A stretch of 38,669 bases of DNA from Candidatus Aenigmatarchaeota archaeon (GCA_030614705.1 JAUWTN010000003.1:1-38669), one strand, 5' to 3'; shown: positions 9,729 through 37,900, counted from the first letter of the stretch. Notes: generated by a model not told the origin, from the sequence alone. Translations and numbers: made by a program.

Positions 9729-10258
9729 TGGGAATCCAAACAAATTGGCATGTTTTAACAGGGGGTCCATGTTCTGGTAAATCAAAAGTCATTGAATACA
9801 TCAAATCCAAAGGACACAATACATCCAAAGAAGTTGCAAGAAATATAATAGATAATGGGATTGCAAATGGAAAAACTGTGGAAGAAATCAGAGAAAATAC
9901 AATAAAATTTCAAAATGACATCCTAAACCTTAAGATTAAACTTGAAAATAATCTAGATCCAAAACAGACAATTTTTCTTGACCGGGGAATTCCTGATTCA
10001 ATTGTTTATTTCAAAGAAGCTGGACTTGATATAAATATTGCAATTAAAGAGTCCAATAAAAGACAATACAAAAAAGTTTTCTTTCTTGAACAACCACCCA
10101 TCAAAAATGATTACGCAAGAACAGAAGATGTAAAAACCTCAAAAAGAATCAGCAAACTCCTGTTTAAAGCGTACCTTGATTTGGGGTATAATTTAATAAC
10201 CGTGCCGGTAACCAAAATAATTGAGGAAAAAGCCGAGATTATTTTAAATAATTTATGA
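9728..10258 (+). CDS. P-loop ATPase/kinase (AAA_28, NadR-like)
   Basis: Walker A VLTGGPCSGKS, plus EVAR, FLDRGIPD and DYARTE. TAATG overlap with the upstream gene. Confidence 0.82.
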   Translation: MGIQTNWHVLTGGPCSGKSKVIEYIKSKGHNTSKEVARNIIDNGIANGKTVEEIRENTIKFQNDILNLKIKLENNLDPKQTIFLDRGIPDSIVYFKEAGLDINIAIKESNKRQYKKVFFLEQPPIKNDYARTEDVKTSKRISKLLFKAYLDLGYNLITVPVTKIIEEKAEIILNNL

Positions 10259-10263
10259 ATTAT

Positions 10264-10278
10264 AAGAAATTTATTAAG
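10264..10278 (+). promoter_or_regulatory. Putative BRE/TATA promoter of tRNA-His
   Basis: AAGAAA-TTTATTAAG about 27-40 nt upstream of the tRNA. The AT-rich background limits specificity. Confidence 0.35.
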
Positions 10279-10304
10279 AATAAAATAATTTAAATATCTT
10301 TTAT

Positions 10305-10487
10305 GGCCGGGATGGTGTAGCCAACTCTTTTCTCGCTTTAATCTAAAGAATAACAGAAAAGGGTCTATAAGGTAGCATGAGAGACTGTGGAGAACCTATC
10401 GAGCCATAGGCGAAGATAGGATAAATGATTGAACTGTTTGCAGTTCATAGAAATCTCTTAGGGGGGGTTCAAATCCCCCTCTCGGCC
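10305..10487 (+). tRNA. tRNA-His(GTG) with encoded G-1 and two BHB introns (10323-10370 at position 17/18; 10391-10452 at position 37/38)
   Basis: Acceptor GCCGGGA/TCTCGGC plus C73, D-stem GTGT/GCAT, anticodon arm AGAGA-CTGTGGA-TCTCT after splicing, T-arm GGGGG-TTCAAAT-CCCCC. No encoded CCA. Confidence 0.92.
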
Positions 10488-10550
10488 CTATTTTTTAAAT
10501 TGTTTCTTATAAATTCCAAAATATTTATCTAAAACTCTTTACAAAAATTG

Positions 10551-12104
10551 TTAATCTCGGTTTGATATCCTTTTTGTTTTCATGTGATTTACTATATCCC
10601 TGATTTTATCCTTTTTCAAATAGACCAACACACCTAATCCAACCATTAAAAGAATTAACAAATAAACCCCGTAATTTGATTCTCCTTGTTTCGATGAATT
10701 GCATATTAAAGAAGTTGAATTGCAACCATATTCGCAGGTTTGAATTGCTATCCATTTGTTATCTCCACATTCCTGCAATATCTCTCCTAAACATCTCTTA
10801 GCCCCTTCATCACATATTCTTTCAGATATTTCCAGTCCTTCATCTCCCTCAATAATAGAGTCTCCTAAACTCTCCGCATAGAACTCCACAAAAGTATCAT
10901 TTATTAACTCCACCTCTTTTTCTCCGAAAACTTCGTAAGTTATAATAACTTCATTTCCTTCGCTCAATTCTGAATAAATAAATAAATATTCCGGATCATT
11001 TTCAACAATTTCTATTGTTGCTCCTAAAGCTGTTACGGTAATTAAATCCGTTGAATTTGCAAATGCTTTTGGAATAGAATCATAAATAATAAAGTTCTTC
11101 GCTGTTTCATTTCCACTGTATTTTATTTTCATTGATAATCTGGATCTATTTTGCTCTGCCTTGAATTCTCTTGTTGCTTCCAAATCAGAAGTTATACTCG
11201 CAGACAATCTCAACATATTCTGCTTTGCCTGTTCGCTCATTTTTCCCTTTGCAAGAACCTTTTCTATTGCTGCCTGCAATCTTAAATTATTTCTTAAACC
11301 AACACCCGGGATTAATTCAAGTTTCTTTGTTGCATTTTTTAATACTTCTTTCTTTGGTAGAATGGAAATACCTCCAGGACTGCTTCCACCCCCATCATCA
11401 TTATTATCCTCATCTCCACCAGGAATATCCACAGAAATCTCCTCAGACACAGAATCCGCATTTGAAGACACAACCTGAACTGTTAAAGTTCCTGAAGCAC
11501 CTTCAGACAGGGTTATTTTCCATGATGCTGCTTTTGTTTCACCTGAACCACCCTCACCACCAGAGATATCACCTAAATTTATGGAGCTTGAACCCGTAAC
11601 AGTTACACCTGAAAGAGAAGAAATAGTGGCAACACAATTTTCTGCGTCAGTTTCTCCCCAATTCTGCACAGTTATCTGAACAGTCTCACTGCCAGAAGAC
11701 ATTATTGTGCTAATTGGGGTAACAGATAAACTCAATGAAGGTGGAGAAACAACATCAAAATAATCTGAATCTGAAGACTCTGATCCTGATTGTGTAGTTA
11801 CAGTAACACTTATCTGTTGCATATTCAATTTTTCGTTTGCTTTCACAGTTGTCCATGAAACTGATGTTGTTCCTGAAGAAAAAGATTTTTCCTCAGATTC
11901 TTCCACACTGAATCCCGAAGGTAAATTAATTTTTGCTGTTCCGCTTTCAGACAACCCATTGACAGTTACAGTAAAAGCAATACCCTGCATAACGGTTCCT
12001 TCATTTGAACCTGGTTGTGATACAGAAACCATATAAGAACCAGCAGAAACCAATTGTAGACTCAACAAACAAAGCATCATCCCAATCAACAGTTTTCTTA
12101 TCAT
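10551..12104 (-). CDS. Secreted, C-terminally membrane-anchored surface protein (517 aa)
   Basis: Signal peptide MIRKLLIGMMLCLLSLQLVSA, Ser/Thr-rich beta domains (CARDB-like), acidic/Gly-Ser linker, Cys-rich module, then TM YGVYLLILLMVGLGVLVYL and a basic tail. ATGA overlap with the upstream frame. Confidence 0.85.
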   Translation of the reverse strand: MIRKLLIGMMLCLLSLQLVSAGSYMVSVSQPGSNEGTVMQGIAFTVTVNGLSESGTAKINLPSGFSVEESEEKSFSSGTTSVSWTTVKANEKLNMQQISVTVTTQSGSESSDSDYFDVVSPPSLSLSVTPISTIMSSGSETVQITVQNWGETDAENCVATISSLSGVTVTGSSSINLGDISGGEGGSGETKAASWKITLSEGASGTLTVQVVSSNADSVSEEISVDIPGGDEDNNDDGGGSSPGGISILPKKEVLKNATKKLELIPGVGLRNNLRLQAAIEKVLAKGKMSEQAKQNMLRLSASITSDLEATREFKAEQNRSRLSMKIKYSGNETAKNFIIYDSIPKAFANSTDLITVTALGATIEIVENDPEYLFIYSELSEGNEVIITYEVFGEKEVELINDTFVEFYAESLGDSIIEGDEGLEISERICDEGAKRCLGEILQECGDNKWIAIQTCEYGCNSTSLICNSSKQGESNYGVYLLILLMVGLGVLVYLKKDKIRDIVNHMKTKRISNRD

Positions 12105-13249
12105 ATTTTATCCATATCGCAATTACCAACCCTAAAATGTTCTCTTATTTTTTCTGTTCCCTTATCACTTTCAAGGTTTATTACAACCATATATTCCCCA
12201 TCAACCCATGAAGAACCCGGCAAGATTTTAAGCAATCCATATCCCTTCTCATTTGTCTGATTTAATACATAAGTTACACTATAATCACTACCCTCCTCAA
12301 GGATACTAAATCCAAATCCAAACATATAAATTTTCTCCACAGAAATATTTGCTCCTGAAATAGATGTTCTATTGAATTCGTAGGTTTTTATAACTACACC
12401 AAAAGTATCATTTTCATCAAGGCACCATTTATGCTTTGCAATTATCATTGAAGCATTGTTATAATACATAATTTCCCAGGAAGGTTGTTTCTCCCAAGAT
12501 AAGTTTTCTTGCTCTTCACCAAACCTGATTGAATCTGTCCAAATATCTGTTGGAAGACGGTTATAATATTCTTTATTGCCGGTTTCATCCCCATAGAAAT
12601 CATAATGATTATCCCCATCGCTTATCTCCGCAACTTCAGTATCATCATCCACTGCAAATTCTGTCAATTCCTGCACTCCATTATTCTTCCCATCATAGAC
12701 AACAATTGTGAAATTCTTGTTTGTAGATTTATTTAGGTCCAAATCCTGATTGCTCTCATTTATCATAGTATAATAACTTATTGTAGTGTCTGATAACCAT
12801 AATTTTACTCCCAAAGAAGATACATTTGCGGTTGTGATTCCTTCCCCTGGCCAAGGTCCTATTCCTGCAAGATATAATCCAGAAGTGAAATTCTCCCCAA
12901 CTTTCACTCCAACAGAATCAGAGAAATTTAAGTCTGTATCAAAAAATGCTGCGAGTGAGCATTCATCATCTGAACACGCAGGACTGCTCAGGTTCTTACC
13001 TTCTATTCCGCATGCAAGAATTACATTGTAAAGAGTACTGCTTATATTCAGTTTCTGCATATATCTCAACCTGTACTCATCACCCAACAAAGATAATATT
13101 TCAGAAGAATTAATCCCAGCAATTCCAAAGTCGAGATACCATTCCATATCAGAACAATTTGTTATTTTCAAAGTAATTAAAGTGTAATTCCTGTCAAAGG
13201 TTAAATTAATTTCACTTCCTTCTGAATATTCAACACCCAAATTACTCAT
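12101..13249 (-). CDS. Segment 4 of the interrupted giant surface protein
   Basis: The frame stays open upstream to TAG 13393. No signal peptide of its own. The confidence value is for it being an independent gene. Confidence 0.4.
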   Translation of the reverse strand: MSNLGVEYSEGSEINLTFDRNYTLITLKITNCSDMEWYLDFGIAGINSSEILSLLGDEYRLRYMQKLNISSTLYNVILACGIEGKNLSSPACSDDECSLAAFFDTDLNFSDSVGVKVGENFTSGLYLAGIGPWPGEGITTANVSSLGVKLWLSDTTISYYTMINESNQDLDLNKSTNKNFTIVVYDGKNNGVQELTEFAVDDDTEVAEISDGDNHYDFYGDETGNKEYYNRLPTDIWTDSIRFGEEQENLSWEKQPSWEIMYYNNASMIIAKHKWCLDENDTFGVVIKTYEFNRTSISGANISVEKIYMFGFGFSILEEGSDYSVTYVLNQTNEKGYGLLKILPGSSWVDGEYMVVINLESDKGTEKIREHFRVGNCDMDKI

Positions 13250-13390
13250 ATTGAAATAACAGGATTCGTTCTGGCTTATATAGAATTTTCCTGATGATTT
13301 GTTTAACAGGAAATACTTGTCTCCCCCATCCAGTTCCAGTGTTGTTATATTTGTAGAATCATTTCCAGGTCCAACAATTTCACAGCCTCC

Positions 13391-14977
13391 CTAAGGATGT
13401 GCTCCTCTCATAACACCCAAGACAGCCACACTACCACCACACCTGGTTTCATTTCTTAATTCATGAATATCCCCATAATTTTCCCACCCAAATCTTTCAA
13501 GTTTCACAGGTTCAAAACCTGAAATCATATGGGCATAACCTGAATAAGTAGTCACAAGATATTTTCTTGTTGTTGCTCTAGGCCATTTCCAGTCTTTCAT
13601 TTTCTCCATTCCTTCGCTTGATTCCGCAATAATTCCAAACGCATATCTGCCCGAAGAAATATTATAATCCTGCAGGTTAATTTTAATCTCACATAAATCA
13701 GAATTGCAGGTTGTTACATTTGAATTTATCAGGATTATCTGACCTGTTTCATCATTCCTCGCCTTATCTATTGTAAGATTTATTTCCCCGCTTCCCCCTC
13801 CAGGTCTTTTAACTATAACCGGAATTGTTATATTATCACCATATCTATAATCTCCAAGTTCAGGCCAGTCTCCTGTATTATTCCTGTAAAACATTATCTC
13901 AGTTCCTCTCGGGTCTATACTTAACAGGTACATTCCTTCAAATATTTCCCTCTCCGACTGGTTTGAATGAACAGAAATTATATTTCCGTTCAGGAAATTT
14001 TCAGAATCATTTGAAATAATCAAGGTATCATAAACTCCTTGTAAATTGGTGTCTGCAACAAGTAAATAAACCATATCCTCTTTAGTTTCTACTTCTCCTT
14101 TCATGAAGATTCCTGATTTTGAAAGAGAGGTATTTACAAAAATATAACTGCCTGCACTTACATTTATTCCGGATAAAGTAACCTCATTCTTTTTTATTAA
14201 AGTAATATTCCACAAAGCACCATAAGTATCCATTATTACCCCTCCTGTTGTGTTGTGAGGTGCATTTGTCATATTTGTTTCATTGGTAATCCACACAGTT
14301 GTTCCATTGTTATAAAAATAGACAGGTCTGTCCTGTGTGCAACCCTCATCATCGCATATTTCCCTGAAATATCTTTTTCCAAAATAGAAATTGCCATCTA
14401 ATTGTGGTGGGATAATCTCTATCAGTTCCTCTCCTTCGTGTGTACAGAATTCCCCGCAAATTCCGTTTGCTCTTTTAACTCTGAATTGTTGTTCATCAAC
14501 AGATACAACCTTCCAGTTTGTACCATTCAATTCAAACTCGTCGTCAGTTGTTAATGCGGATGATTCGGTTAAGTCTGTTGAGGCGTTAATCCAGACATGG
14601 GTGGAATTAGAAACTACATAAACTGTTTGTCCTTCATCACAAGATTCACCACCCCAATAATCTTTCCATTCCTTTTCAGATTCTACACAAAATCTCATTC
14701 CACGATTATTATCGTATTTATCAGACACATTCAACTCTAAAAATGGACTGCATTCTTCGCCCAAACAGATTTTAATTCTGTCTGCGAGCATAACTCTGAA
14801 AATATAATCATATGGATCACCATCCTCATACTTACCAACATCTAAAATCTTCCATTCCCTGCCACCAATAGTAAAACTATCTCCATCACTTAATCCCTGT
14901 GTAGAAGCCAGATTAACAGATGCATTAATCCATACGTGTGTTGTGTTTGATACAACATACACCGTACTGCCATTCAC
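13391..14977 (-). CDS. Segment 3 of the interrupted giant surface protein
   Basis: The GTG start falls inside a repeat unit. Carries VYVVSNxTHVWINAS repeats. Confidence 0.4.
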   Translation of the reverse strand: MNGSTVYVVSNTTHVWINASVNLASTQGLSDGDSFTIGGREWKILDVGKYEDGDPYDYIFRVMLADRIKICLGEECSPFLELNVSDKYDNNRGMRFCVESEKEWKDYWGGESCDEGQTVYVVSNSTHVWINASTDLTESSALTTDDEFELNGTNWKVVSVDEQQFRVKRANGICGEFCTHEGEELIEIIPPQLDGNFYFGKRYFREICDDEGCTQDRPVYFYNNGTTVWITNETNMTNAPHNTTGGVIMDTYGALWNITLIKKNEVTLSGINVSAGSYIFVNTSLSKSGIFMKGEVETKEDMVYLLVADTNLQGVYDTLIISNDSENFLNGNIISVHSNQSEREIFEGMYLLSIDPRGTEIMFYRNNTGDWPELGDYRYGDNITIPVIVKRPGGGSGEINLTIDKARNDETGQIILINSNVTTCNSDLCEIKINLQDYNISSGRYAFGIIAESSEGMEKMKDWKWPRATTRKYLVTTYSGYAHMISGFEPVKLERFGWENYGDIHELRNETRCGGSVAVLGVMRGAHP

Positions 14978-15560
14978 ACTGCCAGGACATTCTCCTGTTA
15001 CGCATCTATATTGTTTTGCTGTTTATTTATTCTGTGGGCCTTCATCACAATGACCTGCAACTCCATCTACGCTTTCATATAAAATGCATTGTACATTTAC
15101 GAAATTTTGCGGATATGTTAAACTTACATTAAATCTATAGTCCACATCATTACAATCAAAATTACTTACAATACCTCTCTCAACAAAATCCTCTGCAGAT
15201 ATTATCATCTTATTTGCATCATCAACCAAATAACAACCGCCCTCATCACACACATCCCTTTCTCCAATATTTCTTATGAACCATGTCCTGCCTCCCGCGG
15301 TGAAATTATCACCAATAGTTTTATTTATAGTGGAAGTCATATCCACAGGACTAACAGTTAAATTATTCTCTATTTTTATCCATAAATGAGTTGCGTTGGA
15401 GACAATATAGGTGGTATTGGAATCTACAGGACAACCATTAGGTTCTGGATTTGTCCAACTTCCATTTGGCAATATGCAATAAACTCTCGCAGTATTATTG
15501 TCATATTTCTGAGATACAGTAAAATTCCAACAATTCTTACAAGACCCATCACACCAGAGA
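14200..15560 (-). repeat. Four degenerate protein-level repeats of roughly 100-150 aa
   Basis: Cores TTYIVSNATHLWI, TVYVVSNTTHVWI, TVYVVSNSTHVWI and PVYFYNNGTTVWI, each followed by GxxW and preceded by Cys residues. Boundaries are approximate. Confidence 0.75.
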
Positions 15561-16459
15561 CTTATATTATTTGTGCCCCCAGAGCAGGATACATTGTCGC
15601 TCTCTAAGTGCCTCGTTCTTTCTATGTCTACATATACTGTTCGAGAATTATATGCATCATCGTGCAACCACCTCTCATTGTCGCATCTATCCTGATCATT
15701 ACCAACAGAAAAATCTTTATAAATTACTTCCTGCTCGTGTATATGGTAATTATTTATCTCAGGAACATTAAGAACCAAATCTTTTATCCTGAACATCATT
15801 TCCTCATCTACTATACTTCCGCCAATCTCCTCTATTTCAAAAACAACAAAGTATTTATCAGAAGTGAAGTTCTCCAAATAAAGAGTCAAATTGCAGATAT
15901 TGCCAATACAACTGACATCAAATGCATCTTCCAGACCCATATCCGGCATTTTTGCTTCTTCATCAAAAACTTCGAATATTGTTATATTCATCAGATTATG
16001 TGGCTGTGCACAGGAACCATCATCAGGAAGTTTGCATCCTTTAAAAATAATTGTAAGATTTTGGTTTCTTGAGAAAACGGGCCCTTCTTTATCATCTTCC
16101 TCATCCAAACCACCTTCAACAGACAGTTCAATATTATATTCTGAGAAAGAGAACCAGAAAGTTCCAAAGTCTTCCTTACCGTCATATTCTCCATTTATTA
16201 TAGCATAAATATCTGAGGTATCATTCTCATCTATATTTATTGATATATTATAGATTTTCATAGGCATACCAGGCCCTTCTCCAGGCCCTTCATCCAAACT
16301 GACATTAGCAATAAAAGTATCAACAACACTATAAGAGACCTTTTCCGTAGGAGACATAAAATCCTGCATTTTCATCATAGAATCTATGCTGAAATCCACA
16401 TCACCAAGGTTAATAGGCTGCCAATCTGAAACATCATTTGCAAAAATACCAAACAACAC
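15023..16459 (-). CDS. Segment 2 of the interrupted giant surface protein
   Basis: In frame with segment 1, 8 codons after its TAA. Acidic and Cys-rich. Confidence 0.4.
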   Translation of the reverse strand: MLFGIFANDVSDWQPINLGDVDFSIDSMMKMQDFMSPTEKVSYSVVDTFIANVSLDEGPGEGPGMPMKIYNISINIDENDTSDIYAIINGEYDGKEDFGTFWFSFSEYNIELSVEGGLDEEDDKEGPVFSRNQNLTIIFKGCKLPDDGSCAQPHNLMNITIFEVFDEEAKMPDMGLEDAFDVSCIGNICNLTLYLENFTSDKYFVVFEIEEIGGSIVDEEMMFRIKDLVLNVPEINNYHIHEQEVIYKDFSVGNDQDRCDNERWLHDDAYNSRTVYVDIERTRHLESDNVSCSGGTNNISLWCDGSCKNCWNFTVSQKYDNNTARVYCILPNGSWTNPEPNGCPVDSNTTYIVSNATHLWIKIENNLTVSPVDMTSTINKTIGDNFTAGGRTWFIRNIGERDVCDEGGCYLVDDANKMIISAEDFVERGIVSNFDCNDVDYRFNVSLTYPQNFVNVQCILYESVDGVAGHCDEGPQNK

Positions 16460-16483
16460 ATTACAGACAACAGGATAAACTAT

Positions 16484-18976
16484 TTACCGGTCAAAAGCCC
16501 ATATAGATTTTGTTCCATTGTAAATAACAGGCAGAACATTTATGAAGAAATTCCTTATCTCAAATCCACCCCATCCAAAATATTCATCCCCTGTATCATT
16601 ATTCCTCAAAATAATATCAACTCCATACCATCCAGTTGGAAGGTTTCCGGTTATTGTGAGATTTGCTCCTGAAGTAGTGCTCATTATTACAGTGGAACTT
16701 GAATTAAAATCACCTGAATCAAATTCTTTCATCAACTGGTCATTTCTTAAATGATTTACTTCAACTATCAACCCCTCGCATCCAGAACACATTGGAGAAG
16801 AACTGTCTGCAAACTCAGGATCAGCCACAGTTACTCTCAAAGTAACCGGTTCTCCTTCTTTTGTGAACCACATTCCTTCCTCTGCATTTACAGGTTCAGC
16901 AAATATAATATATTTCTTGACCATGAAAAAAGATTCTCCTGTACCATACTCATTACTACCTTCATAATCCGCCTTATACCTGAATTTAATAAAATAAAAT
17001 CCCTCACTGGAAGGAGAATTAAACGATAATGTTGAATTTGCAAAAGATTCATTTATATTGTTTCTATAAACCGAGTCTGAAAATACATTTTCATAATTAG
17101 GAAACTCCCTATGAATCTCCATTATGCTGATATCAAGCAAAGCAGAAGAATTCAATTTTTCTCTTGTCTTTAAATCAGTTAAGTCAATTTTTATTTTTGC
17201 AGTTGTATTTGGTTTTAAAAACCATATAGATTCACCATTTTCACCAATCAAAGAACCTTCTGCGATTAAATGCTGGATTCCAAAAAATGTTGAGCTAGTA
17301 AGTTCATCATCTAATTTTACCTTTACATTATAAACACCTGTCTTATTTAAATTATTAATTATTAAAATACATTGGTCCGCCATTTCTGCCGGGGTACCCT
17401 CCATAGGGACATTGGATAAATTCAGAGCCTCAGTGAAATTATAAAAATTATAATCAACCAAATCTTTATAAGAATTCCCAAGTTCATCAACGATATCAAT
17501 TAAACTGAGTCTTGAACAGTTGTGTGTTGAATTAATTATTGGTATTGTATCTGGTCCATTTGGACCAAAACCATTTTCTGATAATTGCATTATTGCAACA
17601 GTAACATTATCCTCAGGGGAAAATGCACTAACCGTGACACCAGATCCACCCTTATCCATTTTATCAATAAAATTCATATTTACAGCTACCAAAAAAAGTG
17701 ATGATGAAGAAATAGAAAAGCCCATAACAAAACTCTGCTCTTGGGTATTGTGCGTTCCTTTTAGCTCTAATTTATATATCCCCTCTTCTTCTGTATTATT
17801 ATAGGTCCCTTTATATACGCCATCACTCTCTTTTGTTAAACTAATTGTACTTTTAACCCCTTTCGGAGTTATTATCTCTGCAATTGGATAACTTGGATTA
17901 ATTAAATTGCCATTATTATCCTTCGCTATTGCAACAATTGATACAGTAGAATTTTTGGAAAACTGGGAAGTAACAATCCCAACTCTATTTGTTGCATACC
18001 CATACAACTTAAACGAATCTACGAAAATATCAATTAAATTCAGATTATTATTTAGAGAAATTGTATATTTTCCTGTATTGGAAATATTGAATATAAATCT
18101 TACATAACCTGCACTATTTGTTGTGTTTGAATTTGTTGATATTGAATTTCCTGAAGAATCCCTGAGAGAAAAATCTATGGTGCAATTTGTACAGAAACTT
18201 AGGTTTTCATAAATAGCAAGCACAAACATATTCGTTTCTACAGTGAAATCATATTCATCTTTTAACTCAATCAGTATAATCTTTTTACCGTCAGAGTTTA
18301 TACCCGCCACAAGATATTTCGTGCCATTTAAAACTACAATTTTATTTATCCCTGATTCCTGCTCCACTTCATTACCAACATCTTCAGAAGTATTATACAA
18401 TGCAAAATTAGGATCATCATCTATATATAAAGTATCAAAACCTCCTGCCTTGTTTCTGTCAAGAACCGCAAAATAATAAGTATCCAATCCAATAACATAG
18501 GTTCCATTATAAACAGCAGATTTGTTCAGGTTATGTAAATCAGAAAAATTACTTCCTGTTGCCAAAGTTGTTGTATTCACAACAATAACACTATTACTGC
18601 TGTTTCCTGTAAAAAAAGATATAAGATTAAACTTCTGTTCTAAGATTCTAAACTTTATTTTTACTTCTTCTGAACTTGTGGAAAGCAATGCATAATATTC
18701 TCCTTCAGTATAATTGGTCAAAGAAAATGATATATCAAAAGAGGTATTGACAGAATAATCTGTTGAATTTTTCAATGTATCTGAAGAATTATAAATTTTT
18801 AGAGTTAATATTGTTGAACTGCTTAAATCTCCACTTAGTATTAAATTTTCATCAGGCGTGTATATTATTTTTGATGAGGTTACCATCAAAGCATTTACAG
18901 GAGATAATAATAAAAATATTAACAATAAAGATAAAAATAATTTTGGTTTTGTAAATCTTATAGAATAAATAAACAT
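16484..18976 (-). CDS. Segment 1 (N-terminal, signal peptide) of the interrupted giant surface protein
   Basis: Signal peptide KPKLFLSLLLIFLLLSPVNA, MG2/Ig-like starts (SKIIYTPDENL), many N-x-S/T sequons. Confidence 0.6.
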   Translation of the reverse strand: MFIYSIRFTKPKLFLSLLLIFLLLSPVNALMVTSSKIIYTPDENLILSGDLSSSTILTLKIYNSSDTLKNSTDYSVNTSFDISFSLTNYTEGEYYALLSTSSEEVKIKFRILEQKFNLISFFTGNSSNSVIVVNTTTLATGSNFSDLHNLNKSAVYNGTYVIGLDTYYFAVLDRNKAGGFDTLYIDDDPNFALYNTSEDVGNEVEQESGINKIVVLNGTKYLVAGINSDGKKIILIELKDEYDFTVETNMFVLAIYENLSFCTNCTIDFSLRDSSGNSISTNSNTTNSAGYVRFIFNISNTGKYTISLNNNLNLIDIFVDSFKLYGYATNRVGIVTSQFSKNSTVSIVAIAKDNNGNLINPSYPIAEIITPKGVKSTISLTKESDGVYKGTYNNTEEEGIYKLELKGTHNTQEQSFVMGFSISSSSLFLVAVNMNFIDKMDKGGSGVTVSAFSPEDNVTVAIMQLSENGFGPNGPDTIPIINSTHNCSRLSLIDIVDELGNSYKDLVDYNFYNFTEALNLSNVPMEGTPAEMADQCILIINNLNKTGVYNVKVKLDDELTSSTFFGIQHLIAEGSLIGENGESIWFLKPNTTAKIKIDLTDLKTREKLNSSALLDISIMEIHREFPNYENVFSDSVYRNNINESFANSTLSFNSPSSEGFYFIKFRYKADYEGSNEYGTGESFFMVKKYIIFAEPVNAEEGMWFTKEGEPVTLRVTVADPEFADSSSPMCSGCEGLIVEVNHLRNDQLMKEFDSGDFNSSSTVIMSTTSGANLTITGNLPTGWYGVDIILRNNDTGDEYFGWGGFEIRNFFINVLPVIYNGTKSIWAFDR

Positions 18977-19081
18977 AATATTAGTTTAATATATATTTAT
19001 AATTAAAAGTATATTTTAAAAGATATATAATTTATTAATAAAAAATAATTAAATTGGTCCTAGTTGAGTTTACCTGCACTC

Positions 19082-20602
19082 TTACAAATTCTCAAATCTA
19101 TCAATAACTTTATTTCTCCCAATTGCATCAACCAACATTGCAATCCTTGGTCCTTGTTTTTTTCCAATTAAAACCTGATAAATTATCTGGAAAAATTCCT
19201 TCCCTTTTGGTTTTACAATTCCAAAAATCTGCTGTTGCAATTCTTCAGTTGAGCTTTCTTTTTTTAGAAGTTCTGCAATTTCTTTTAATCCTTCTCTTTG
19301 GTCTTCTGTTATTTCCACCTTATTAGCTACAAGTTTAATCTTGACATTTTCAGGTGCGTATTTTTCAACCCAATATTTTACTTTTTCTGACCTTTCAATT
19401 GCCAGTTCCAGATCAGTTTCATCCATTTCAATTCCCCTTTCTTTCATCATCTTTGAAATATAATTTTTTAGTTCTGTTGGGGGGACTACCTGTACCAATA
19501 ACACAAGTTCTGAAAAAGAAACTCTTTTTGGGCAGGTCTTATGCTCTTTAATTTTAATTAATTCATATTTTCTTTTTAAATCTTCGTCCATATCTTCCAG
19601 ACCAAAATAAATTCTTTCGCATTTGTCAAACTCATTGTAAATATTGTAGACATCCATATCAAATGGTATGAATATTGTTTTGTTTAGTCTCTGCGCATAA
19701 ATAAATCTTACAACTTCAGGTTCATAAATCCCAAGCAACTGCGAAACTGTTGCAATATTTCCCTTTGAACTTGACATCTTTTCTTTCTGTCCTTTTAGAT
19801 GAATAAATTCATACATTGGACCCACAGGCGGATTATAACCAAAAATTTCTTTTGAAATCAAAACTCCTGTGTCCCACGAACCTCCCTTTGATTTATGGTC
19901 TTTTCCCGAACTCTCAAAATCAACTCCGTAATAAGCCCATCTTGCAGGCCAGTCCACCCTCCATTTGATATTCACAACATTAGTAATTTCCCTAAAATCA
20001 ATTTCATTCTCATTTCCGCATGAACAAATGTAAGAAATCTTATAATCTCCAAGATATTTTATCTTTGTAAAATCTTTCCCGCATTTTTCGCAGTAAGCTC
20101 CTATTGGAACCCAGTCATCAGCCAGAGGTTCTTTCCTGAATTTATTAAGAAGCTCTTTTATTTTCTCTGTTTTTTCCAAAGCGATTTTTATATTTTCAGC
20201 GAAAATTCCTTTTTGATATAACTCTGCTGCGCGAAGATAAACAGGTTCTATATCCAATTGTTTCATTTCCTGAATTATTAAAGACTCAAAATGCTCTGCG
20301 TAAGATTTATGGCATCCCCAAGGGTCGGGTACTGCGCTCAGAGGCATTCCCAGATATTTCTCAAATTCTTCAGGTACTCCTTTTGGCACCTTCCTAAATC
20401 TATCAAAATCATCCCAAATATACAAAAACTTTGCCTGTTTTCCTAATTTCAAAATTGACTGATAAACAAAATATTGAGTCATTATTTCCCTCGCATTCCC
20501 TATATGAACCACTCCTGAAGGGGTAATACCGCTCTCTACAATATACACTTCTTTATTCCCTCTTTCTAATACCTGTTTCGCAAAATTATCCGCCCAGTGC
20601 AT
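19082..20602 (-). CDS. lysS: Lysine--tRNA ligase, class I
   Basis: Motifs MHWAD, SGITPSGVVHIGN, WDDFDRFRKVP, KWRVDWPARW, GKDH and KMSSSKGN. Confidence 0.97.
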   Translation of the reverse strand: MHWADNFAKQVLERGNKEVYIVESGITPSGVVHIGNAREIMTQYFVYQSILKLGKQAKFLYIWDDFDRFRKVPKGVPEEFEKYLGMPLSAVPDPWGCHKSYAEHFESLIIQEMKQLDIEPVYLRAAELYQKGIFAENIKIALEKTEKIKELLNKFRKEPLADDWVPIGAYCEKCGKDFTKIKYLGDYKISYICSCGNENEIDFREITNVVNIKWRVDWPARWAYYGVDFESSGKDHKSKGGSWDTGVLISKEIFGYNPPVGPMYEFIHLKGQKEKMSSSKGNIATVSQLLGIYEPEVVRFIYAQRLNKTIFIPFDMDVYNIYNEFDKCERIYFGLEDMDEDLKRKYELIKIKEHKTCPKRVSFSELVLLVQVVPPTELKNYISKMMKERGIEMDETDLELAIERSEKVKYWVEKYAPENVKIKLVANKVEITEDQREGLKEIAELLKKESSTEELQQQIFGIVKPKGKEFFQIIYQVLIGKKQGPRIAMLVDAIGRNKVIDRFENL

Positions 20603-20624: not shown

Positions 20625-21503
20625 TCAACACAGTTTATTTAACAGATTATTTCTTGTTCCTTTGTATATTTTCGAATCTGTAACCCAAATTGAAAGTGGA
20701 TATAATTTATTTAATAAATTAATTTTATATTTTTCACCTATCACCTCAGAAATTGAATCTAATTCAAATTTATATTTAGTTAATAACTTAACTAAATCCG
20801 GCTCACTAATACCTTTATCTCCATCAGATATATCATCCTTTATCTGAGCCACTATACCCAGCAAAGAAACCAATCTTCTGACATCTTCGGACTTATTTTC
20901 CATAAAATCCGGAAAAGTTTCAATTAAATCCACCAAGGTTAAATGCATATAACTGCCAACAAATTTTAAATTTTTTTCATAATCCCCGGGGTTATTATAT
21001 CCCCCACCACCATATCCTCCTTTAGACAAACCAATAAAATCAGTTATAAATTGTTCTTTATCCACAGGATAAACCTCTAAATCATCCCTAAATATCTCAG
21101 CAATTTTTAAAGAACCCTCCAAACCTTCAATATAAGGCAATTCGTCCCTAATATTTTTTTCATTATCAACATAAGATATAAAATCAACCAGGGAATCCAA
21201 CATCTCTTTTGTTAATTTTCTATCCAAACCCTTACCCGTTATATGACCGTCTATCACATTATCCAGAACCCTTATCATAAAAAGATAATCACCGCATAAA
21301 GACAGAACTTCTTTGATATAATCCTTACCGCCGCCTAAATTATAATAATATTTTCCCGCATAACCTTTCTCAAAAGCACAAGTATTTTTTAAACTTTTTT
21401 CCAAAAAAAGTCTTTCTTTATCAGGTAAATCTGAATTTTCAATAATTCCACTCATGTTTTTATAATTTCTGAGTGTGTTGTAATAATCACTTACACTAAC
21501 CAT
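20625..21503 (-). CDS. Divergent class I isoprenoid synthase-fold protein (prenyltransferase/terpene synthase-like)
   Basis: Two Asp-rich motifs at plausible spacing: IRVLDNVID and LGIVAQIKDDISD. Helical character. Confidence 0.6.
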   Translation of the reverse strand: MVSVSDYYNTLRNYKNMSGIIENSDLPDKERLFLEKSLKNTCAFEKGYAGKYYYNLGGGKDYIKEVLSLCGDYLFMIRVLDNVIDGHITGKGLDRKLTKEMLDSLVDFISYVDNEKNIRDELPYIEGLEGSLKIAEIFRDDLEVYPVDKEQFITDFIGLSKGGYGGGGYNNPGDYEKNLKFVGSYMHLTLVDLIETFPDFMENKSEDVRRLVSLLGIVAQIKDDISDGDKGISEPDLVKLLTKYKFELDSISEVIGEKYKINLLNKLYPLSIWVTDSKIYKGTRNNLLNKLC

Positions 21504-21573
21504 AATAATTATAATTCAGTAATAAATATATATTTAAAGATATTATCAAATTAATCCTTAATTATCTTATTAT

Positions 21574-31936: not shown

Positions 31937-34900
31937 TCAGACTTTCTCAAGCGACTTCTCAAGCGAAGTTATATATATCTCAACCATTCTGAAATTTCCT
32001 GTCTTAAGTTTTTTCATAGCAAGTTTAAAGTCAAGTTCATAATCCTCAGTATATATCTTGCGTTCTTTCAAATCCTTTATCTTGGCTTCAATAACTTTTA
32101 ATTTTTCTATATTGGTTTTGTATAAACTCAACTCAGCTTCAGTAATTTTATGCGGGTCATGTTTTGTTGGTCTGAACTCAACAAAGAAAGGTTTACCATC
32201 ATTATATTTTGGATATTGCATTAACCCTGCGCCAACACCCATCCTAGTAATTCTCTGCGAATATTGCTCGCCATATTTTGTTTTTACTTTTTCTATATCC
32301 ACCAAAGATTTTGTATTTAACTGGATTTCTGTAAGAACATTACCCGATATCGCTGATTTAAAGTCCGCCAATACCTGAGAACACATTATAATTCCAATAC
32401 CCCACTTCCTGAATTCCCTCGCTGCTTTTTCAAGAGCAACATAACCTCCAGTCCCCCCATATTTTTCAAGCAACCTATGAACTTCATCAAAAACGAGCAA
32501 TAATTTTAAATCTGAAGATTCTTCCCAAGTCTCTCCAAAAATGGATTTAATTATGTGGTCAACGGCTTTATCATATTCCCCGGGTTTTAATTTATTCAAA
32601 CAAAAAATTGTTATTTCGCCAGAGTTTATGAATTCTTTTATTTTTAATTCAAAGTCTGGTTTTTCAACATCATAAATCAATCCTGGATATGATTTTATAT
32701 CAAAATCACTCATACCAAATTCCTTATATTTCCTTGTGAGATTTGAATCTTTGCACGCCTTCACAAAACCAGTCCATTGCGCTGTTGGGTCAAAAACAAT
32801 TACAGGAATATTTTTATCAAGAGCTTCTTCAGCAATTACAGAAGCGGATACAGATTTCCCGGCTCCTGTTGCCCCAGCGGATATAAGGTGTGTTGTTAAA
32901 TCTTTAGGGTCGAAATAACAATAATTATCAGTTCCTGCAAATTTTCCAATTTTAAATCCTTCCCTCGGAACTTTCTTGTAATCCAAAGGATATAAATATC
33001 TTTGTTCTTTTTCCTTTTCTTTTTTCCAGATAAGATAATAACGCCAGATATAAGTCCCTCCTACGATTATACCGGTTAATAATGCCATTAAAATCAATCC
33101 AACCATCCAGGGTGATTCAAACAATGGTCTGACTACTTCGAAGGTTTCTACATCCATAATCCCTCTATCATAATATATTGCCCAAACTTCTAAATTATAG
33201 AAGCCTTTTTCAGTAATATCCAGCGGTATGTCCTCTCTTACTATCTTTGTGGTCTCTAAAATTACTGAAGTATTCACCTCACTCACCACTTTTCCGGTTT
33301 TCTGCTCTTTAATTATATAAGTTAAATTTATTGGCAACAACTTCTTTTCTCCAAGATTGATTAACTTAACAAGGAATTCAAGATTATCCCCGGGATTTAT
33401 TTCTTTTGTTGCAAGTTCCAGTTCAACAGAGAACACTGCGGTTGCTTTTTCAAGAACCGTAATCGAAATTGGAACATTCTTCGTTTGATCTCTCGCCTTG
33501 ATTACAATATTCCCTGTATAAATCCCGGTGCTTTGGTTTAAAGGAACTGTAAGATAAAGGGGTATCTCTTCTGTTGAATCCGGGGTTATAACTTTTCTTG
33601 TAGAACCCAAACTCAAAATCTCTTTCAAAGTTCCTGTAATTTCAAGACCCGTATCAATATCAGAACTCATTCTGCTCTTTAAAGAAAGTTGATAATTTCT
33701 TGAATCTCCCTGAAATATTCTTACATTGGCGAGATTAGTATCCACAATTAAAGGGAAATCATCCAAAGGACAATCCTGAGGACAGTTCTGGTAATTTTCG
33801 CCAACTTCGCAAACCCCATCCCCGCAAGTTGAAATTTCTAAATCAATTGTAGTGGTTCCGCCTGACGAACTTCCGCTAGGTGAACTTGTACCTGGATCAA
33901 CAGGTGGAGTATAATAATATCCGCTGCAATCAATCAAAGACTCACCAGAATAACAAGATTCCGCAATAATAAATGCAGAAAGCTCTGAAGTATTAAATTC
34001 AAATACATTGCCTGAAGGATCAAAATTTCTATCTAGATAATCAGAACTGGAATTGCATTGTTGAGCCGCATAATTCCAATCATGGCACACAAGAACTTCA
34101 AGATTATTTACATTTTTTATGGTCTTACCTGCAATTATTGCTGATGCAAGTGCCTGCTCAAAATCAATAGTAAAATCCACATTCTCAGTTAAATTTGTCT
34201 CAATTACAATACCTAATAAAACCGTCCCTACAGTATTGGGTAATCCTGCATGCACTAAAGGAAGACTTGTATAATTTGGATAATAATCAAACTTAAAAGG
34301 ATTATTGGTGTTATTGGAATTATTGAAATCAGCATCGCGCAAAACTATTTCCTGGCCGAACAAATCAACCTTCACATCATATTTTCTTTTATGTAATGTC
34401 CAGTTATATATCTCGCTGGTCTTCGTGTTATTTTCATGTATTCTATAAAGCTCATCCAAATCACACCCTTCCCTGTAAAAAGTAAAGTTTGCATCTATAG
34501 GAATTCCATCAGGGTCTATCAAATTGCCTGAAACCTGCACAGGGATATAAATATCAAACCATCCTGTTTTATTGCTCTCAACATTTCCTGCAGTAGTATC
34601 ATTTGCGTAAACAATTATATCATAATCTCCTGTATATTCGGGTCTTGAAAAATTGAAAACAAAATTTCTCTTATCAAATTCATTTTCAGCTGAAAGATAA
34701 GTTTCAGTATAATTACTTAAACCTAAATTCCATGATTGTCCGCTGTTGGTGTGGGTTACCTTAGCGTTCACAGAACTTATATTTTTGTTATCGGTTATAT
34801 TTACTTCAAAAGTTATATAATCTTGAGTATAAGTGTTATTGTTAATGAAATCAGCAGTTATATTTGAAAACCATGGCGAAATAGAATCAACATAGATTAC

Positions 34901-37900
34901 TGCGTCTTCTTCCAAATCAGACAACACCACACCATTCACTTCATAGGTTCCAGTAACTTTCAAATCATTCTCAATTATATTATTAGTAACATTTGGGGCT
35001 GTGCAATTAATATGCCATAACTCATTGCCCGAATGATATGAATAATTAACAACATTGCAATTACTCCCTCCAACTAAAACTGCCCAACTCATATTTTCAG
35101 TAACAGAAGTGCTTCCAGACAAAGCTCTTACACTAAGCTCTAAAGTATCATTTACATTCACATCTGCAACCGGAGTTGTCCCGTTTGGACTGATAATATC
35201 CACAGTAAAATTAATTATTTCAAAGAAGATTGAAATATTTATAAAATCAGGAGCATCTGAATCCAGATTCTCAACTTTAAGAGTATAATTATAAGTCCCC
35301 ACTGCATCAGGACCAACACTTGTATTATAAAATATTTCAACAATTCTTTCCGTATTATTGGTCACAGTAATCGAAAGTTGAGTTGCCTTGTTGGTATCAT
35401 TTAAAGTAAGATATTCTGCAGTTGTTCCTGAATTTACAGTAATTGATAAATTAAAATCGAAGTTTTCATCTTTTATATTATCAATCCCAATTTCGCCTAA
35501 TTTATTTACCTCTGCTTTCAAACCAACGGTTTTATTTAATGTTAAAGGTGCTGCATCCCAATCCAAAGGAGTTATATTCAAAGTAAACGGCAATATCTTT
35601 AAACAATCCAGACAATTGCTGACATTTGCAGTAATATTTAAATTATAAACTCCTATCCAGGAAGTGCCTAAAGTTGAAGCATTTACAGTCATTAATATTG
35701 TTTCTTCCCCCCCGCGATCTAAATTAAAATTATTGTTGCTGAAAGTTATCAGGTTTATAAAAGTTGAAGAATTATCTCCTGTCAGGTTTATAACCGCATT
35801 TGTTAAATTTACATTACCGTAATTCTGTATTGTAAAATTTGTTGTTCTGTCTGAAGATATTGGCACAGAAAGAGAAAGACTGTTTTCAACAAATTCCAAT
35901 TGTTTGTTTGGCTCAACAAAAATTGTTATATTTTTATTAACTGTGTCATAAGTAGCATCTCCGTTTTGCCAGGTAACATTAAACCATATCGTCCTGTTTC
36001 CGGTATCCGCTTCCGAAGTTATTGTTATATTAAATAAGTTTGTGCAATTCTCTCCAGTCCGGATTGGATCGCAAACAAGTTCCTGGATATATATCCCCGC
36101 AATAGAAGAAATATTTATAACTGGACTGTACATGTCCCCAGTCCCATTATTTATTAAAACAAAAGTCATGTTTTGCGTAATATTGTAAACAATGGTGAGA
36201 TTTGATGCTTCAAGATATTCGGGGGTTAAATTTAATTCCGCGGTGGTGTTGCCTCCTTCCACAATAGCCTCAACCACCATACTATCAACTCCCGCAACAT
36301 TATAAAAAATATTTGATTGGTCAGTTATATTGCAGGAAAAAGGGTAAGTATCAGCTCCATATATCTGCGATTCCTTAACTGCGATTCCCTGCGAATTTGT
36401 TGTGTTATTTCCTATATACAAAGTGGTTAAATTATAAAAATCCACTGAATAATCAACAATTCCATCATAAGTATAATTATCCGCCACCATACACTGCAAA
36501 GATAAACTCGCGTTTACCATGCATCTGTATTGCCAGATGCCTGTTGTTGAATTAAGAGTGCAATAATCAGAATCAATTGTCAGATTCTTCACATAAGAGA
36601 ATCCTGTTAAATTAAAATATCTTATTTCTGAATCAGATTCATAAAACGGTTTTTCCGCGTCCGCAATTATTTTCCTTCTCCCAACATTTTCTGTTCCTCC
36701 CAATAAATAAGTATCATTAACAAGTCCGCTGATGCTTTTTCTATGGGTTAAATTTAATTGAGTTGGATTTCCTGAATGGAAATTTACGCAAGCCCCATCA
36801 TCATCCACAAAGCAGATATAATTTATCTGGGCATAAGTCATATCCATAGCATTTTGCTCATGCTCATATTCATTTAGAATAACAGAAATATTTTCAGCTG
36901 AAGAATAAGAACCCGAACAGGTGGCCACAGTCCAGGGTTCTTCAGAAGAATTATAACCCCCATAATTATTCACTAAAGGAGTCAAACCGCATAACACACC
37001 CCCTATTTTTAACTGAAAATCTCCATGATAAGTGCCATCAAAAAACTCACCCCATGCCTTATAACTTATATTTATCTTATCTGTTTTTGTGATATTTGAA
37101 AGATTTTGGAACAATTCCACACCCCCTCCATCCCCAGATAAATCCGCAAAAAAGGTTTCATTCTCAAAGGAAACATTTGATACGCAATCATCACATGAAG
37201 AAACAGTCCACAAAGAAAAATCAGTGGAATCAAAACCCGCATTTAAAATATTATATCCAACATCATTTGTTGACGGATTGCTGTCTTTTAAATTTATTTC
37301 CAAAGTTTTGCTGGCGCTCGCAGTCAGGTTTATTAAAAAAACTAATTCGGTTAGATTATCCAGATATACCCGACTATTATTCAATTCTGATTTTGCTGTT
37401 GAAGTCCAGGGATAAACTGAAAAAGGTATTGTCGCTCCATCCATCCTAAGCTGAGTATTATTTAATTTCCAGTCAATTAATTCAAAATCACCATCCGCAA
37501 AAAAACTTCCATTCAAAATTATTGGGTAATTTACTCTGTCCCTTCCTGAAGTATCTTCAATAGTTACATTAAGCCTATATTTATTTACAAGATACCAACT
37601 CACGTTTGCGCCGCCAACACTTTGCCCGCAATTATCTTTCACTGAAGAATTTATACTTAAATTTTGTCCTTTATAATAACTTCCGGTTTCTAAAGGCGAC
37701 AGGATTGTTAAATTTAATCTGCCCATCAGGAATACTGATTTATTGGTCTGATTATTGGAAATATTATAATAATTATCAGCGCCGGTTTTATTAATTATTA
37801 CTATTAATATACTTTGTCCAACATTAAAACTGCTTGAACTATTATATTCCAGAGAACATCCTCCTGAAGAATTTGTCGAACTGTTCCCAATTGGTGTGGA

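Follow-up and report, generated by a model that had tools for sequence, protein, structure and literature searches.

Bacteria carry young pseudogenes and prematurely stopped alleles of surface or adhesin genes that are dispensable. In Listeria, premature-stop alleles of inlA are strain-specific nonsense truncations of an exported surface protein, other strains keeping the full gene. Diversity-generating retroelements (DGRs) are known from DPANN archaea (PMC5758913, PMC8144416), and short, discontinuous conversion tracts have been documented in the archaeon Sulfolobus (PMC3367456). Here, we analyzed a 38,669-nucleotide (nt) stretch of DNA from Candidatus Aenigmatarchaeota archaeon (GCA_030614705.1 JAUWTN010000003.1:1-38669), hereafter the window, in which a giant surface-protein gene (12101..18976, minus strand) is interrupted by three in-frame stop codons. 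An earlier note on this DNA had described the gene and left four alternatives for the stops, namely, local hypermutation, programmed readthrough or editing, recent inactivation, and consensus error. To judge from our analysis, the gene is dispensable and highly variable, and the locus resembles a commonplace copy of it that is broken or mis-assembled; it does not look like a new mode of reading or mutating DNA.

Results

The gene is read on the minus strand, from 18976 down to 12101; all coordinates below are those of the plus strand, on which a reading of the locus was discarded as meaningless since the gene lies on the other one. It forms a single frame of 2,291 codons followed by its natural stop, a TGA at codon 2292. 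The extent and the peptide strings given in the earlier note were recovered correctly in the minus-strand translation, as were its three in-frame stops: TAA at codon 831 (stop 1, 16484..16486), TAA at codon 1318 (stop 2, 15023..15025), and TAG at codon 1862 (stop 3, 13391..13393), with zero frameshifts along the frame. Open reading frames (ORFs) of 830, 478, 528, and 382 amino acids (aa) are called across the gene. All four pieces show codon log-odds of 0.21 to 0.24 per codon in the gene frame, with no additional stop, and the two alternative frames of each piece contain 33 to 99 stops. Given this intact coding signature and the stop-rich alternative frames, the single frame is therefore far from chance. 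The first ATG occurs 35, 77, and 47 codons past stops 1, 2, and 3, respectively, and GTG codons are found 8 and 15 codons past stops 1 and 2.

Comparison with homologs shows that 12101-18976 is one gene, orthologous to an uncharacterized Aenigmarchaeota family of giant secreted proteins of ~2,000 to 2,350 aa. Using a read-through query with X placed at each stop, blastp aligned residues 13-2284 with residues 20-2344 of the G030 homolog at 33% identity over 2,422 columns. Collinear homologs are encoded by single ORFs in G030 (2,348 aa), G299 (2,358 aa), and G002 (2,084 aa), and the only interruption of the G016 homolog is a run of N. The nearest relatives, G012 and G015 (about 40% identity), read past stop 1 before their contigs end. 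Database homologs, labeled Candidatus Aenigmarchaeota (DPANN), measure 1,645 to 2,354 aa and are single proteins in 17 of 17 cases. The alignment of homologs, which the earlier note had proposed as a check, thus returned collinear intact ORFs with sense residues at all three sites, and its single-gene reading is fully supported, the homologs being single collinear ORFs and not four separately initiated genes.

At all three sites, the aligned homologs carry sense codons. At stop 1, the two nearest homologs have Tyr and three others have Pro or Gly; at stop 2, which falls in a variable linker, the single aligned homolog has Ala; and at stop 3, Ser is present in 3 of 3 aligned homologs. Matches to the family were detected in 34 of the 371 genomes of the phylum. 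Outside the source genome, assembly G000 (729 kb in 55 contigs, 78% complete), a stop lies inside the match in just two of them. One is a homolog match with one in-frame TGA (G123:C66), and the other is a decayed family remnant (G308:C76:1-3521), which is truncated, has a TAA around codon 51, and loses its frame after some 460 aa through a frameshift. We also observed that the next ORF past this remnant is unrelated to it, rich in Cys, and membrane anchored. When the individual pieces of the window gene were used as queries, they behaved as singletons: their best other database hits are at most 37 to 41% identical, and the search returned no near-identical protein from another assembly. JGI metagenome contigs, scanned for exact 31-nt anchors, gave 0 matches.

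Other samples provide a view of the locus at the nucleotide level. Ten public runs from five studies of cold-seep and marine-sediment metagenomes hold part of the window, with a best word share of 0.40; no RNA run was listed. The runs are available as contigs, and four of them were compared with the window through pieces of 200 to 540 nt at depths of 2 to 7; the comparison rests on the pieces and differences listed for these runs, and coverage resolves the sites of stops 1 and 2. Many of the pieces are identical to the window. A 525-nt contig of the first run (X1), spanning 16301-16825 at a depth of 6.5, differs from it at 11 positions, one of which turns the TAA of codon 831 into GAA. Stop 1 is therefore not fixed, since the X1 sample has Glu at this codon. 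All 11 differences fall within codons 814-840 (patch 1, 16457..16537, minus strand), and such a confinement to 81 of 525 nt has an approximate P value of 8e-8. Eight of the differences are non-synonymous and three synonymous; nine are transversions and two are transitions. Contigs from two further runs (X2 and X3) share parts of the X1 version, so that the alternative patch 1 allele is present in three runs from two studies. This allele keeps the family-conserved N823 and G837, positions at which the window has K and V.

The second stop presents a comparable picture. Patch 2 (codons 1302-1325, 15002..15072, minus strand) consists of 71 nt centered on stop 2 that are not alignable to an X2 contig, which, by the sum of its segments, holds 71 nt there as well. 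This contig, of 370 nt (254 + 71 + 32 + 13 loose), matches the window perfectly over 15073-15326 and returns to it over 14970-15001. Both patches are thus 70 to 80 nt long, length-preserving, and flanked by identical sequence, and the patch 1 differences are substitutions only. The divergent X3 strain offers a reference within the same gene: in the last piece, its 21 differences are 12 synonymous and 9 non-synonymous, with 15 transitions and 6 transversions, a spectrum that departs from that of patch 1 (Fisher P = 0.008). Additional points at which run contigs break away from the window lie at about 12435, 13786, 14794-14913, 15323-15372, 16250, and 17333-17367. These suggest many short hypervariable stretches beyond the two stop patches. 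Since contigs leave the window at many places, the gene is a fine mosaic between samples, and not just at the stops. The dense patches are the one unusual trait of this nonsense-interrupted gene.

We then placed the three stops against the rest of the genome. The 737 coding-like ORFs of the assembly end with TAA (496), TGA (134), or TAG (78), the remainder running off contig ends; the view that all three codons are normal terminators, which the earlier note had drawn from neighboring genes, thus holds genome-wide. A scan for stops flanked on either side by an open frame of 120 aa or more returned 29 cases, among which, beyond the three stops of the giant gene, only C41:3691 seemed to be a true interruption. 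This TAA cuts the gene of a secreted LTD + CARDB protein of about 778 aa (C41:2146-4608, plus strand). The site is occupied by Tyr in 4 of 5 aligned congeners and by His in one, the orthologs are intact, and the flanks are perfectly conserved, with no patch. Internal-stop flags raised for relatives of the C41 gene were set aside, as they lie mostly upstream of the start codon, and L018 has no internal stop in the alignment.

A background rate was obtained by comparing G000 with about 581 kb of G009, a genome of the same genus. The comparison took in 413 coding-like ORFs, aligned over 123,460 residues; the count was filtered to coding-like ORFs and replaces an unfiltered one that was dominated by non-coding frames. 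Four clear internal stops emerged in G000: C41:3691; C40:25418, a TGA for Gly in a PurC-like gene (92% identical to G009); C18:3755, a TGA for Gly in a DUF92-like gene (also 92% identical to G009); and C49:27181, a TAA for Glu in an Rpp29-like gene. The last three are all compatible with G-to-T changes. In G000, the same comparison left about three more stops of ambiguous status and a single, weak candidate for a frameshift, and the reciprocal test listed, as candidates, 8 internal stops in G009 along with about 5 frameshifts. The resulting background of about 3e-5 stops per codon predicts 0.07 stops in the giant gene, versus 3 observed (Poisson P = 6e-5). A change of genetic code was considered and rejected: stop usage is normal, in-frame stops are rare, and two TGA-for-Gly cases are too few for TGA to encode Gly. 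As a separate observation, ARAGORN detected 3 tRNA genes in the 729 kb, none of them in the window, far below the expectation for a 78%-complete genome; the missing tRNA genes may be unassembled, intron-rich, or split.

The surroundings of the gene bear on its importance to the cell. The giant gene and its downstream partner occupy an 8.8-kb interval (10256..19084) between genes for an AAA_28 protein and LysRS, which at the syntenic site of G009 are only about 420 nt apart, the entire two-gene cassette being absent. These flanking genes are 84 to 89% identical between the window and G009, and the remaining genes of the contig are 75 to 96% identical. Next to this, a 296-aa ORF past LysRS (20628-21515) also has no counterpart at the G009 locus, which makes the locus a small variable island amid conserved genes. 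A homolog of the giant protein was detected in 1 of 10 other same-genus genomes; these are incomplete, so that the rest count as "not found." Furthermore, of the 475 columns conserved in the family, the window protein departs from the consensus at 132 (27.8%), a pattern present in all four pieces, whereas other members deviate mostly at 8 to 22% and the two nearest relatives at 17.6 to 19.1% over the N-terminal part. The cassette is accessory and often lost in Aenigmarchaeota, and the giant gene is dispensable or under relaxed constraint in this lineage.

The predicted giant protein has an N-terminal signal peptide (codons 1-30, 18887..18976, minus strand; helix 12-23 in the model), which is its sole hydrophobic segment, no other membrane segment being found. 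Its N-glycosylation sequons (N-x-S/T) number 94, or 4.1 per 100 aa, and 44 of its residues are Cys. Codons 249-313 (18038..18232, minus strand) encode an MG2-like (macroglobulin) beta-sandwich domain, whose match to Pfam PF01835 is borderline (E = 1.1e-7, 32.6 bits, the cut-off being 32.8) and whose fold is matched by chains of C5, C3, and A2M. The other Pfam matches are weak and of Ig type, and neither the giant protein nor its partner matched any NCBIfam family. A profile built from 18 family members had, as its sole matches in the PDB, the MG2 domains of A2ML1 (E = 5.4e-4) and alpha-2-macroglobulin. The AlphaFold model of residues 1-830 (mean predicted local distance difference test [pLDDT] score of 76.5) consists of consecutive beta-sandwich domains. 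Its last confident beta-strand spans residues 798-807, and residues 813-830 have a pLDDT of <50, which is compatible with the proposal of the earlier note that the residues after stop 1 begin the next domain.

With this 830-aa model as a query, the top Foldseek matches were complement C5/C3, A2ML1, TEP1r, CD109, and bacterial A2M, with E values down to 1e-16 and template modeling (TM) scores of 0.1 to 0.2. Like the members of the A2M/complement C3/TEP/CD109 superfamily, the giant protein is a string of MG-type beta-sandwich domains with one Pfam MG2 match. Unlike them, it lacks the thioester motif and the A2M/TED domains: CxEQ is present in 1 of 18 family members, not in the window protein, and is not conserved, and no A2M or TED Pfam domain was found in the giant protein at E values up to 0.01. 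Membership in the thioester (A2M) family was therefore rejected, and, given the missing motif and TM scores of merely 0.1 to 0.2, the likeness to A2M is one of domain type and not of family.

Further along the protein, four Cys-rich repeat units lie at codons 1190, 1339, 1452, and 1552 (14291..15409, minus strand), with the cores YIVSNATHLW, VYVVSNTTHVW, VYVVSNSTHVW, and VYFYNNGTTVW. The earlier note had stop 2 splitting a repeat unit, which is roughly right: the stop is located 21 codons ahead of the second of the four VYVVSN.THVW cores, in the Cys-rich linker of the unit and not in the core itself. We also noted that a motif of the form G.YDT.YIDDD / VDDD occurs three times in the window protein (codons 167-188, 1648-1657, and 2107-2115) and is conserved in the consensus alignment of the family; this recurrence may represent a metal-binding or structural repeat.

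The partner gene (10551..12104, minus strand) is intact, and its 517-aa product carries a signal peptide and, at residues 476-498, a C-terminal membrane anchor. The ATG of the partner gene overlaps the TGA of the giant gene (ATGA), and the two genes are a translationally coupled pair. The homologs in G030 and G002 are likewise trailed by a gene of about 490 to 520 aa. The role of the giant protein is presumably cell-surface attachment or shielding. The neighboring genes are ordinary archaeal ones and encode a class I LysRS, AcnX, a UbiD-like protein, a GHMP kinase, and ribosomal protein L4. The window also contains a second giant ORF (31937-38668, minus strand), of 2,201 aa from a GTG start and of 2,243 aa when read up to the contig end, where its frame is still open; it is intact, includes a HerA/DUF87 ATPase domain at residues 1864-1959, and is 81% identical to its G009 ortholog. 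Within listings and the opening lines of abstracts on Aenigmarchaeota or cold-seep surface proteins, DPANN DGRs, and premature stops in metagenome-assembled genomes (MAGs), no published description of this family or locus was found.

Discussion

We tentatively favor, at a little less than an even chance, the hypothesis that this surface gene, which is dispensable, mosaic, and hypervariable, is represented in the window by a loss-of-function allele that arose recently and is private to the strain. The stops would then be real in the DNA and sit together on one haplotype. According to this hypothesis, the gene in the assembled strain or strains would have acquired three non-programmed nonsense substitutions, so that only the N-terminal 830 aa, including the signal peptide, could be made and exported, and the downstream 1,460 codons would be silent. 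The breaks would be young, because the frame has no frameshift, the coding signature is intact, and synonymous changes still predominate among the strain differences of the last piece. They would be tolerated, because the cassette is accessory and often lost in the lineage. The patches would then correspond to short-tract exchange between divergent alleles, a plausible origin, for which no paralog or silent-cassette donor of the giant gene was found in the 78%-complete genome. The enrichment of stops in this gene (3 versus 0.07 expected) supports the hypothesis of a loss-of-function allele.

Several observations weigh against it. Neither the three stops nor the window's versions of patches 1 and 2 are found in the pieces or differences listed for the four runs; position 16486 has depth in X1 only, with a sense codon there; and the X2 contig has another 71 nt at patch 2. 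A one-mutation knockout predicts a single difference, whereas stop 1 is accompanied by 10 more in 81 nt, and these changes, being rich in transversions and non-synonymous substitutions and costing N823 and G837, resemble unselected noise. Across G000, the disruptions are nearly all substitutions (7 stops versus 0 to 1 frameshift candidates), and the stop-making changes that can be deduced are mostly G-to-T or C-to-A, which fits damage or error as well as mutation. It is thus quite possible, if on balance doubtful, that the gene is intact in the organism and that the stops and patches are wrong or chimeric sequence generated where alleles split an already low coverage. This could happen through single-read paths, gap filling, or a per-site consensus of two alleles (TAY + GAA giving TAA); indeed, the two nearest homologs have Tyr at codon 831, X1 has GAA, and TAA is the per-site chimera of these. 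Such an artefact agrees with the depth of 2 to 7 for the organism in all four runs compared, with the recovery, among the listed pieces, of the alternative patch 1 from two studies and of neither of the window's versions, and with patches that preserve length, consist of substitutions with a random-like spectrum (9:2 and 8:3), and lose conserved residues. Since about 5% of possible substitutions give a stop, 11 random hits would create one about 43% of the time. Isolated stops also occur in conserved housekeeping-type genes of G000 (PurC-like, DUF92-like, and Rpp29-like), with almost no frameshifts. Against an artefact, De Bruijn assemblers normally would not create 11 substitutions in 81 nt, the path usually being present in the reads, and a contig of 38.7 kb argues for a reasonable source depth. 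Random error fails to account for a gene that makes up 1% of the genome and has 3 stops (P = 6e-5) unless coverage is locally split. Moreover, internal stops have a similar background in G009 (8 candidates listed), so that this background need not be special to the G000 assembly, and the dispensability of the gene and its decay in relatives constitute independent evolutionary evidence. Recent inactivation and consensus error remain the two live readings among the four alternatives of the earlier note.

The patches themselves invite a mechanistic explanation. Targeted local hypermutation, or patch-wise mutagenic repair of a non-DGR kind, would lay down substitution-only tracts of 70 to 80 nt in exposed linkers and sometimes create stops. 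We consider this unlikely, even though 2 of the 2 stops covered by other samples sit in short dense patches with flanks identical across samples and studies, the clustering of the 11 differences and the departure of their spectrum from the ordinary divergence of the same gene are marked, the model puts patch 1 in a linker of low confidence that follows the last strand of a domain, and many additional break points are scattered along the gene. Just two alleles are seen per patch, the contigs giving no allele spectra; the 78%-complete genome yielded no candidate for an enzyme or a template; in the other broken surface gene (C41:3691), one codon is cleanly changed and there is no patch; and short-tract recombination between old alleles, or an artefact, covers the same pattern by known processes. 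It is similarly improbable that the patches are the footprint of an unrecognized template-free or short-tract mutagenic process that diversifies the linkers of DPANN giant surface proteins, with nonsense codons as a by-product. A DGR target whose variable regions picked up stops is highly improbable. The known occurrence of DGRs in DPANN archaea (PMC5758913, PMC8144416) and a patch size near that of variable regions would suit it, but a search for an RVT_1 reverse transcriptase gave no match in the 78%-complete genome (the control was positive in 3 of 14 known genomes), and no template repeat or second copy of any part of the gene was found there at word sizes of 7 to 9, only chance matches of at most 46 nt and weak internal repeats at 68 to 73% identity. 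In addition, the 11 variable sites fall at codon positions 1/2/3 in a ratio of 4/2/5 and not in AAY codons, adenine is not over-represented on either strand, and the patches are internal and not C-terminal. Thus, of the hypermutation alternative in the earlier note, the DGR form fell, since neither the reverse transcriptase nor the near-identical template copies it would need were found in the genome, and neither was the adenine/AAY pattern; the dense local patches at stops 1 and 2 stood. A programmed recoding or readthrough at the TAA and TAG codons, with products of nested lengths or a full-length protein, is very unlikely. It would explain why all interruptions are stops in one frame without frameshift, and the downstream pieces, having neither a signal peptide nor an early ATG, would be useless alone. 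The alternative is, however, already largely refuted, as judged from the aligned homologs, by the non-conservation of the stops. Codon 831 is GAA elsewhere, the two types of stop codon lie in unrelated contexts, TAA and TAG terminate the bulk of the ORFs of this genome, and merely about 4 other in-frame stops occur per 123,460 aligned codons; no suppressor tRNA was seen, a weak argument given the 3 tRNAs detected genome-wide. Finally, a fission into four separately translated genes is barely conceivable: the GTG codons shortly after stops 1 and 2 could serve it, but every full-length homolog is one ORF, pieces 2 to 4 have no signal peptide, other export signal, or hydrophobic segment, and stop 2 lies inside a repeat unit, so that the four-gene reading is refuted.

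For the most part, these results make a point of annotation: the four ORFs are one broken (or mis-assembled) giant gene, neither four proteins nor a decoding oddity. The frequent loss of the cassette fits a cell-surface role under shifting host or virus selection. Where MAGs of such organisms have low coverage, reads should be consulted before a stop in a hypervariable gene is interpreted. Should read data show the patches to be real and multi-allelic, the locus would represent a tractable case of localized diversification in an archaeal symbiont.

Among described systems, the allele that we favor resembles the truncated inlA alleles of Listeria, with the difference that the organism here is uncultured and its stops are known from the assembly only. 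DGRs share with the patches the short, length-preserving, substitution-only variable tracts in a surface gene; they differ by their reverse transcriptase, template repeat, and adenine/AAY pattern, none of which was found here, and by the internal position of our patches. The short-patch conversion of Sulfolobus acidocaldarius (PMC3367456) was observed in a crenarchaeon by transformation experiments, while the Aenigmarchaeota locus is known from DNA data and has no identified donor allele. The two nevertheless have short tracts in common, and a process that separates markers 20 to 30 nt apart could yield mosaic patches, and even chimeric codons, of the kind seen at the stops of the giant gene.

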